This document shows, piece by piece, positions 5,251 to 5,970 of a stretch of 7,747 nt of DNA. This stretch comes from a virus. Lineage: Duplodnaviria > Heunggongvirae > Uroviricota > Caudoviricetes. Below the pieces are notes generated by a model. The model made no database searches, was not told the DNA's origin, and saw nothing but the letters and a program-made list of their open reading frames with translations. The stretch lies in IMG/VR virus record IMGVR_UViG_2537561714_000016, positions 1-7,747 of that record, one strand, 5' to 3'. A program made the position numbers and the translations under genes. The number at the start of each line of letters is the position of its first letter. Position 1 is the first letter of the stretch.

Positions 5251-5379
5251 CATGGTGTTCACAGAACACACAGTTACCGGACACATCAGTTTTCCATTCG
5301 TCCCCCGGCAGTACAGGCTTCCCGTCTGACGGGATAGCCTGAAAAAACACAGAAAATTATTTGTTATAATTAATATAAC

Positions 5380-5520
5380 TTACTCAAAAAAAAGCGACGA
5401 GAAAATCAGCATCAACGAGCAATAAGCGCCAATACGTGATAACAAATGGCAGCCATATTTATCTGCAGTATAAGCAATGGACAGGATAACCACACCAGAA
5501 ACCGTCAGCATAAAATCCAT
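5380..5520 (-). CDS. Hypothetical 46-aa hydrophobic small protein (unannotated short ORF in AT-rich island)
   Basis: ATG at 5518-5520 preceded by GGGGAAG 5 nt upstream; translation MDFMLTVSGVVILSIAYTADKYGCHLLSRIGAYCSLMLIFSSLFFE, TAA at 5380-5382. Two hydrophobic stretches suggest a membrane peptide. Below the 60-aa cut-off of the ORF track; coding status unproven. Confidence 0.25.
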   Translation of the reverse strand: MDFMLTVSGVVILSIAYTADKYGCHLLSRIGAYCSLMLIFSSLFFE

Positions 5521-5940
5521 TTGAACTTCCCCGGACAAAATCGACTCATCTAAAGATTTACAGCTCTTTTTATTATCAATATGTTAAAAGTAAAATAAAC
5601 AGATGTTCAATAATACGAATACAAAAACGTGCTGAAAATCAATGAATCCATTTCTGTGTTATCAATTAATAGTGATAAACATCCGGCTTCTTCCACCATC
5701 GCACCGGACCAGCGACCATGAGGGGACAACGCCGCGCTCCGTTTACGCGGTAAACCCCGGTGTGTATCGTTTTTGATTATCCCCGCACACTCGCGCAGAA
5801 GGAATTCCCCGTCGGGCTACGGTCATGGTTAATGCGGAAATACAGCGACGATACAGCGCATGATGTGTCAGGCTTGAATACCTTTATCCGTTAAAAGGGA
5901 TATCAGTTAAGTTATCCCGTGTAGGGTATAAGCCATTATC

Positions 5941-5962
5941 AAGCCCACCAGTAGATGGGCTT
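5941..5962. terminator. Stem-loop just downstream of the KilA-N cassette (possible weak or bidirectional terminator)
   Basis: 7-bp stem AAGCCCA/TGGGCTT with 8-nt loop, starting 9 nt after the stop of the 5971..6228 ORF. On the minus strand there is no U-tract after it; on the plus strand it is followed by TTTGTAAT. Confidence 0.3.
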
Positions 5963-5970
5963 TGTAATGG

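Follow-up and report, generated by a model that had tools for sequence, protein, structure and literature searches.

The window analysed here, a 7,747-nucleotide (nt) stretch of viral DNA (positions 1 to 7,747 of the IMG/VR record IMGVR_UViG_2537561714_000016), is the late region of an Escherichia coli lambdoid prophage whose main genes all lie on the minus strand, and the 720-bp gap at its positions 5251-5970 is a mosaic of three independently inherited phage modules joined end to end. We refer to these modules as block A (the left, AT-rich segment), block B (the middle segment) and block C (the right segment). Block B is a conserved structured RNA and candidate new family, predicted from sequence comparison to be formed in the sense of the late operon; block A is an ordinary moron carrying an already annotated orphan small gene (orf46); and block C is read as the putative 3' end or terminator of the neighbouring KilA-N/p85 cassette. 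Taken as a whole, this three-module reading, in which the gap links the lysis to the packaging genes in an E. coli O157-type lambdoid prophage, is held with moderate confidence. A preliminary description of the same DNA had proposed a single AT-rich island, either a horizontally acquired moron or a noncoding RNA locus, and its interpretation is partly supported: the gap is not one single island, the moron corresponds to its AT-rich left 0.4 kb and the conserved structured RNA lies in its GC-normal part, so that, the island being composite, each of the options that had been raised holds for a different part of it. The coordinates of the individual features are collected in Table 1.

The module boundaries emerge directly from the distribution of the sequence among phage genomes, which splits the region into three segments (blastn). 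Very few deposited phage genomes contain the segment from 5251 to ~5674; that at ~5675-5861 occurs in hundreds of Escherichia and Shiga toxin (Stx) phages at 75-98% identity, and that at 5883-5970 is common to HK544, mEp234 and P22-like Salmonella phages. Base composition changes along the gap as well. Its 720 bp have a GC content of 42.5%, compared with 54.2% for the window, and the AT-richness previously ascribed to all of it holds for 5251-5674 (36.6% GC, falling to 28.6% at 5521-5674, upstream of orf46) but not for 5675-5861 (56.1% GC), with 5862-5970 at 42.2%; block B hence lies in the GC-normal part, and not in horizontally acquired AT-rich DNA. Some part of a query spanning 5201-6020 is present in 4,120 of the 5,426 complete E. 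coli genomes in our collection; the whole 4400-6300 arrangement is found in no complete genome of that collection, the best matches ending at ~5863, and this position is a recombination junction. The exact join between block B and the block C/KilA-N cassette, beside an HNH-type packaging module, was likewise seen in none of the complete E. coli genomes, and since none of them carries the ~5863 junction the window is a recombinant unrepresented in the collection. As had been described, the gap lies between the KilA-N cassette and a DUF3950 gene (ylcI), both identified with Pfam, and contains no open reading frame (ORF) of 60 codons or more, the longest being a 52-residue, TTG-extended form of orf46.

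The case for block B as an RNA rests on how its versions vary. A consensus fold of 83 unique versions reaches -36.3 kcal/mol on the minus strand versus -13.2 kcal/mol on the plus strand. In an RNAalifold analysis of 47 diverse versions the structure comprises 40 base pairs, 7 of them with compensatory changes, and across 73 distinct sequences 98.4% of the cells are paired and nine of the 40 pairs change on both sides. These pairing measures were reached by none of 500 shuffles, and sliding the partners against each other leaves 32-66% paired. Other lineages, for instance, replace the stem of hairpin II by CUGU/ACAG, UCUC/GAGA or CCGCGC/GCGCGG. A strand test provides the most independent evidence; in it, G.U variants (present in at least three sequences) occur in 18 paired columns and A.C variants in 1 (binomial p about 4e-5), or 357 G.U versus 16 A.C when cells are counted; because G.U variants outnumber A.C variants, the late sense is the predicted strand of block B. 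In the same vein, the canonical share of the helices is 98.4-98.9% on the late strand versus 86.6-88.1% on the other strand. Of the two inverted repeats from which structured RNA had been suspected, CCGCG-N9-CGCGG exists, is hairpin II and thus belongs to this conserved element, its true place being slightly to the left of the 5736-5754 originally given; the other, GGGATA-N10-TATCCC, was located exactly and belongs to the tail of the KilA-N/p85 cassette, not to block B.

A search of the whole window with the families of Rfam 15 (cmscan, E up to 1) gave a single chance match to a snoRNA at 2829-2872 and none in the gap, whereas a covariance model of our own, built on the RNAalifold-based alignment, matches the element at full length in every lambdoid locus tested. 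The window copy scores 216.6 bits, that of phage lambda (46,864-47,035, between bor and the DUF1398 gene lambdap78) 112.9 bits and that of the K-12 prophage DLP12 (579,005-579,177, between borD and the DUF1398 gene ybcV) 119.4 bits; the lambda and DLP12 copies are both missed by blastn with the window region as query. A weaker match to the model, of 48.7 bits, at 10723-10858 (minus strand) of L045, a viral contig already holding a full copy, may be a degraded duplicate. Scanning a one-genome-per-species collection for the pattern of the hairpin III loop returned mostly chance matches, the real ones being two Escherichia-type loci and three tiny contigs. The latter (L202, L186 and L193; 350-470 bp) come from Thiomicrorhabdus, Pseudomonas yangonensis and Modestobacter assemblies, carry block B at 79-88% identity to the window and are most likely lambda or E. 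coli contamination.

The orientation and the neighbours of block B are constant across ~130 loci. Read in the late sense, it is preceded by Rz, a 75-aa gene or p85 where the upstream gene runs on its own strand, and by bor where that gene lies on the other; among the genes that follow it, orf46 and terS share its strand, and ylcI and ybcV are oppositely oriented. The Rz stop codon precedes the element by 6 nt in 25 loci and that of the 75-aa gene by 12 nt in 19 loci. At the 3' end of the element, the ylcI or ybcV stop codon is 0-6 nt away in 39 of 42 loci. On the basis of these distances, block B occupies the interval from the end of the lysis cassette (or the divergent start of bor) to the convergent moron-strand genes, and its synteny suggests that it forms part of the late transcript. 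Since the conserved block starts ~6-12 nt past the upstream stop codon and leaves no room for a conserved promoter, it would be a cis-acting or processed part of that transcript and not an independent small RNA (sRNA) gene. A 27-nt promoter annotated in the HK630 record (TGGACA-N15-TACAAT; L248, 919-945, minus strand) lies within stem-loop I but on the opposite strand, upstream of bor, and its counterpart in the window, which has no bor, is degenerate (CGGTCA...TACAGC). No targets for the conserved loops of block B were found within the window.

Block A fits a moron in being a discrete AT-rich segment that holds one small gene and is missing in collinear relatives. Morons are segments of extra DNA of deviant composition, with a promoter and a terminator of their own and expression from the repressed prophage; those of lambdoid phages, such as bor and lom of lambda and gp15 of HK97, were reportedly described by Juhala et al. 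in 2000, a study that PMC4104026 cites. Absence from collinear relatives and deviant composition are both found in block A. The sequence (5251-5674) is 100% identical to O157:H7 genomes, and block A occurs in 734 of the 5,426 complete E. coli genomes, in nearly all of them at no less than 97% identity, with one copy at 80.6%. It is absent from phages 2G7b and ev110, in which the ylcI stop codon overlaps block B or precedes it by a few nt. Overall, ylcI adjoins block B in ~36 loci versus 20 loci in which orf46 lies between them, and the context of block A is constant, between block B and ylcI, beside differing types of terminase. The resident ylcI product ends in STERSGMNYIIK, compared with TSEKRAYTSIKSDEE in K-12 and ev110, the two departing after residue ~49, and this divergence from canonical YlcI over the last ~12 codons places the insert's left junction inside the 3' end of ylcI. 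On the right side, a relic of the canonical ylcI end attached to block B is the sole solid trace of insertion; a repeat finder detected no direct repeats around block A of the kind left by target-site duplication. These ~25 nt are also what stands of the earlier suggestion that the gap might hold a decayed gene remnant, for there is no remnant of bor, the only trace of which in the window is the degenerate counterpart of the HK630 promoter.

The 46-codon ORF of block A, to which the preliminary description had drawn attention together with a Shine-Dalgarno (SD)-like GGGGAAG, is real, and it is already annotated by the Prokaryotic Genome Annotation Pipeline (PGAP) as the hypothetical protein WP_000347013.1 in many genomes. 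An intact orf46, of 45-46 aa, is found in 19 of 20 loci. The conservation of this short frame can be assessed in a diverged lineage, represented by strain SHP24 and one viral contig, in which the ATG, the GGGGAA, the frame and the immediate stop are all kept across a DNA divergence of 19%, the GGGGAA of SHP24 being retained despite a diverged flanking untranslated region (UTR). The SHP24 and window copies present 25 differences over 132 nt, of which 12 are synonymous (Sd) and 13 non-synonymous (Nd), the latter mostly conservative, and the resulting ratio of non-synonymous to synonymous changes (pN/pS) is 0.35 versus 0.66-0.80 in the other frames, suggesting modest purifying selection on orf46. 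A T8 run on the late strand (window 5383-5394), just before the stop codon, is T9 in some strains; this toggle switches the C-terminus between FFE and FF, and the run accounts for frameshifted database entries of 51 and 63 aa.

In the predicted peptide, a DKYGCHLLSR loop with K21, H25 and R29 as central residues separates two hydrophobic stretches of ~16 residues each. Its grand average of hydropathy (GRAVY) is 1.11 and, in keeping with the hydropathy, AlphaFold models it as two helices (residues 2-22 and 24-45) with a predicted local distance difference test (pLDDT) score of 76. No family was found for it in Pfam, PHROG or NCBIfam at E values up to 1, and an exhaustive HMMER search of 1.84 billion representative proteins detected no homologs beyond its own near-identical E. 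coli variants, the remaining hits being spurious repetitive proteins; a word-based protein search likewise returned near-identical E. coli entries only. Having no family and no relative outside these variants, orf46 is an orphan of E. coli prophages. Its product is most likely a small inner-membrane protein and is probably made in pathogens, and on balance we regard orf46 with fairly good confidence as a genuine gene encoding a small membrane protein.

With regard to transcription, translation and function, we infer the following for the three modules. Block A is a 0.4-kb AT-rich moron, either inserted at the 3' end of ylcI or brought in there by recombination, with orf46 on the late-gene strand. 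Its gene may be expressed by late read-through, possibly also from an AT-rich promoter of its own in lysogens, and could play a moron-like role such as the exclusion of other phages or the tuning of envelope or lysis behaviour. Block B would be transcribed within the late polycistronic message, as the spacer after Rz, p75 or p85 or next to the divergent bor start, where it would most likely act in cis or be processed from the late transcript, and it may serve as a processing or 3'-end-protecting structure that splits the lysis-gene mRNA from the downstream mRNA. The hairpin pair of block C would end the KilA-N/p85 cassette. For block B we advance a tentative proposal, which we consider possible rather than probable: that it is a functional structured RNA which had gone undescribed in lambdoid phages, is present in lambda and in most E. 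coli prophages and, within the late transcript or processed from it, would set the balance or timing of lysis versus packaging and head-gene expression, or would act in trans via the loop of hairpin III.

Several observations weigh against these readings of block B and of orf46. The single-sequence fold of block B is no more stable than those of shuffles (z -0.11 for the window copy and -0.99 for lambda), and the minimum free energy (MFE) fold of the lambda copy has a local hairpin in place of helix P1. The aligned sequences are closely related (effective number 1.36), so that the covarying columns reflect few independent events; most of them were gathered by means of a search pattern in which 24 nt of one arm are prescribed, and the block B alignment (A5) was fitted to the model. 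For orf46, the coding support comes from one diverged lineage with two loci, and the protein database also contains frameshifted and truncated variants. Matches to promoter and terminator consensus sequences in 4900-6400 are no commoner than in shuffles (3 versus 2.2 for promoter-like and 2 versus 1.5 for terminator-like matches). The hairpins between the stop codons of orf46 and ylcI, where a single terminator-like match lies at 5269-5255, fold at -35.0 kcal/mol, with z-scores of -2.84 (late strand) and -2.72 (other strand), and have no canonical U-tail in either direction. Lastly, earlier literature cited in PMC10695390 calls the lambda genes that surround the element (bor, lambdap78 and lambdap79) non-essential, and the element is hence probably dispensable for plaque formation.

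Many of these points would be accommodated if the gap contained nothing functional, being a recombination scar between modules that is kept by recent kinship, with orf46 as a chance annotated ORF: the near identity of most block A copies, the low effective number of the RNA alignment, the fold z-scores of block B, the broken variants of orf46 and the non-essentiality of the flanking lambda genes are all consistent with it. Neutral drift, however, is not expected to yield an 18:1 excess of G.U over A.C columns together with compensatory pairs. The element is kept at the level of the covariance model in lambda and DLP12, where nucleotide similarity is too low for blastn, and the frame, start, SD and stop of orf46 are kept over 19% divergence at a pN/pS of 0.35. 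We consider this explanation unlikely. It is equally improbable that block B acts on the ylcI/bor strand or as DNA, as a terminator or 3' UTR of ylcI or ybcV combined with a bor promoter, its late-strand fold being incidental. The abutting stop codons of ylcI and ybcV, 0-6 nt past which block B begins, the promoter annotated in HK630 inside the element, and a report of ybcW and ylcI as a convergent overlapping transcript pair of K-12 (PMC12288877) would agree with such a function. Against it, the share of canonical pairs drops on that strand, no U-run follows any of the block B hairpins there, and full conservation of the element goes together, in the window and in most phages lacking bor, with degenerate promoter hexamers.

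A further alternative, which is doubtful and in our estimate slightly less probable than the two above, concerns orf46, the product of which could be the toxin of a new type I toxin-antitoxin pair, repressed by an antisense or divergent small RNA and acting in prophage stabilisation or abortive infection. Like Hok, Ldr, TisB, Ibs, ShoB and ZorO, the orf46 product is a hydrophobic peptide of less than 60 residues in a prophage or accessory context, its UTR region is AT-rich, and the invariant 35-nt stretch upstream of it, with promoter-like hexamers on both strands, gives a divergent layout that recalls tisB/istR and zor/orz. These hexamers belong, however, to a set of matches not above chance. 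The peptide has no Pfam match of any kind, hence none to a known toxin family, and no Rfam antitoxin RNA was detected at E values up to 1; nor was a repeat or a complementary sRNA segment found. Unlike those toxins, it is made up of two short hydrophobic helices, and not of one transmembrane segment with a charged tail, and it occurs in a single fixed context, always between block B and ylcI. Beyond small size and hydrophobicity, the idea of a type I toxin thus finds no support. Finally, it is very improbable that block B encodes a small plus-strand protein (44 aa from a GTG in the window, 54-60 aa from an ATG in some phages), since, although some lineages have an intact ATG-started ORF (MRDKPANHKRGKNPVCIVFDY... 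or MMKYVYPVTPVCIVFDY...), this frame shows no three-base periodicity (17/15/16 variable sites per codon position), its pN/pS of 0.65 does not improve on that of other frames, an in-frame stop codon comes before the GTG in the window (a TAA 3 codons upstream), in ev110 and in 933W, and the ORF is frameshifted in lambda and lacks both an SD and a family match. The coding reading, attractive by eye because of Pro/Thr wobble, failed on periodicity, on pN/pS and on the lambda frameshift. In the window, 5718-5776 of the plus strand holds one frame broken by a stop (ATG 5718, TAA 5751, GTG 5760); lineages with one base less and one base more have an unbroken 58-aa ORF, and hairpin II lies exactly in that variable segment.

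Block A, its slot and block B can each be compared with known systems. On the one hand, block A resembles morons in its absence from collinear relatives, its AT-richness, its single small gene and its location between late functional modules. It departs from them in that its promoter and terminator are only putative, in that orf46 runs in the same direction as the late operon, unlike the antisense bor, and in that its product is an orphan confined to E. coli prophages. The same slot, in the same orientation, is occupied by ybcW in DLP12 and by lambdap79 in lambda, which are also small, convergent with ylcI and located at the boundary between lysis and packaging; they share no sequence similarity with orf46, and YbcW is a soluble 68-aa protein, unlike the hydrophobic orf46 product. 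Besides the K-12 transcript pair mentioned above, lambdap79 is reported to be expressed in infection and to trigger the Vulcan defence system (bioRxiv 10.64898/2026.09.04.749371). Both reports show that the slot is expressed, without bearing directly on orf46.

On the other hand, the closest parallels for block B are hairpins that process or stabilise the polycistronic mRNAs of phages, such as the RNase III sites of T7 and sib of lambda. In common with these, block B is a long interrupted stem-loop at a module boundary of a predicted polycistronic phage transcript, strand-specific and not itself an intrinsic terminator; it differs in being larger, with three domains and a conserved 16-nt hairpin loop, and its being an RNase III substrate is put forward solely as a conjecture. 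Block B also shares with the prophage sRNAs AgvB, AsxR, EcOnc, Pas, STnc100, Esr41, DicF and IpeX the traits of a conserved non-coding RNA in a fixed syntenic position. AgvB, AsxR, the EcOnc sRNAs, PasA, PasC and PasD, however, lie near Q, PR' or the holin gene, whereas block B follows the lysis genes and has no promoter in its conserved block. The enterohaemorrhagic E. coli (EHEC) sRNAs AgvB, AsxR, EcOnc and Pas were rejected as candidates because they are located elsewhere, and none of the prophage sRNAs named above matched the window in Rfam. Sequence strings gave no match in the supplements of Tree et al. (2014), and neither the element sequence nor the orf46 peptide appears in any paper searched; searches on borD/ybcV and sRNA, on the lambda late transcript and RNase III, and on DUF3950/ylcI returned nothing specific. 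The gap holds neither a known type I toxin nor a known sRNA.

The remaining features frame this arrangement. Block C, which accompanies the p85 gene in HK- and P22-like phages (5883-5970 being shared), folds at -35.5 kcal/mol (z -7.39), with none of 200 shuffles as stable, and its second hairpin has a 10-nt loop that exceeds the range of the terminator scanner. Nested within Rz in another frame is a 71-aa ORF (6978-7193, minus strand) that carries a proline-rich tail and a lipobox-like LLGVSAC and resembles an Rz1-type o-spanin. At the far end of the window, a single 645-aa ORF (146-2083, minus strand) is prohead-protease-like in its N-terminal part and major-capsid-like in the rest, and seems to fuse the two. 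The motif CAGTTAACAT(T/G)T is present in 4-5 copies, in both orientations and with a palindrome at 4549-4566, at window 4439-4567, within the 290 bp that separate the small terminase gene from the HNH gene; these copies look like terminase-binding (cosB-like) repeats of an HNH-dependent cos phage.

Table 1. Features of the 5251-5970 gap and of its surroundings, in window coordinates.
Feature	Position	Strand	Basis or remark
Block A, AT-rich moron-like insertion	~5251-5659		Absent from collinear phages; low GC
Three hairpins between orf46 stop and ylcI stop, including CAGGCU...AGCCUG at 5312-5339	5255-5339	-	Fold
orf46, 46 codons, predicted hydrophobic two-helix peptide MDFMLTVSGVVILSIAYTADKYGCHLLSRIGAYCSLMLIFSSLFFE	5380-5520	-	RefSeq WP_000347013.1, PGAP
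SD-like GGGGAAG	5526-5532	-	Ends 5 nt before orf46 ATG; 8 nt from GGGG core
Promoter-like site TTTACA-17-TATGTT	5557-5585	+	Consensus scan
35-nt invariant stretch upstream of orf46	5566-5600		Same in both diverged block A lineages; overlaps promoter-like hexamers on both strands
Promoter-like site TTTTCA-17-TATTAT	5638-5610	-	Consensus scan
ylcI relic, last ~20-25 nt of the canonical gene, attached to block B	5660-5684	+	16-nt match, 94%, to K-12 ylcI 3' end; alignment
Block B, 186-nt conserved element, predicted structured RNA, late-operon sense	5679-5864	-	RNAalifold, covariance model
Hairpin III, conserved 16-nt loop UGCGAUGGUGGAAGAA	5681-5709	-	Block B consensus
Hairpin II (CCGCG hairpin)	5732-5750	-	Block B consensus
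Stem-loop I, long, interrupted	5764-5854	-	Block B consensus
44-codon GTG ORF VCIVFDYPRTL...	5760-5894	+	Opposite strand of block B; judged non-coding
Block C, two hairpins, read as ending the KilA-N/p85 cassette	5890-5972	-	Inverted repeat, fold
Block C second hairpin, GGGAUA-N10-UAUCCC, then UUUU	5897-5918	-	Downstream of first
Block C first hairpin, 17-bp arms, 5' arm overlapping p85 stop codon	5931-5972	-	Inverted repeat I1
ylcI/ynfO-family (DUF3950) gene	5065-5250	+	Pfam PF13132, E 9e-20; NCBIfam NF041551; convergent with orf46
p85, 85-aa phrog_875 gene	5971-6228	-	PHROG; abuts gap
KilA-N + ORF11CD3 gene	6225-6722	-	Pfam
R lysozyme and Rz (embedded Rz1-like ORF)		-	Late genes
HNH endonuclease, small terminase, large terminase, predicted protease-capsid fusion			Window genes beyond ylcI

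The region illustrates how lambdoid late regions are assembled, with a small-gene moron dropped at the 3' end of ylcI that ~13% of complete E. coli genomes carry, among them those of O157:H7, O104:H4 and extraintestinal pathogenic E. coli (ExPEC) strains. The unexpected and more interesting result is the strand-specific conserved element of 186 nt, which falls outside Rfam and is present in lambda itself and in the DLP12 prophage of K-12. If block B is a functional RNA, it would be directly testable, with simple mutants, in the best-studied phage system.

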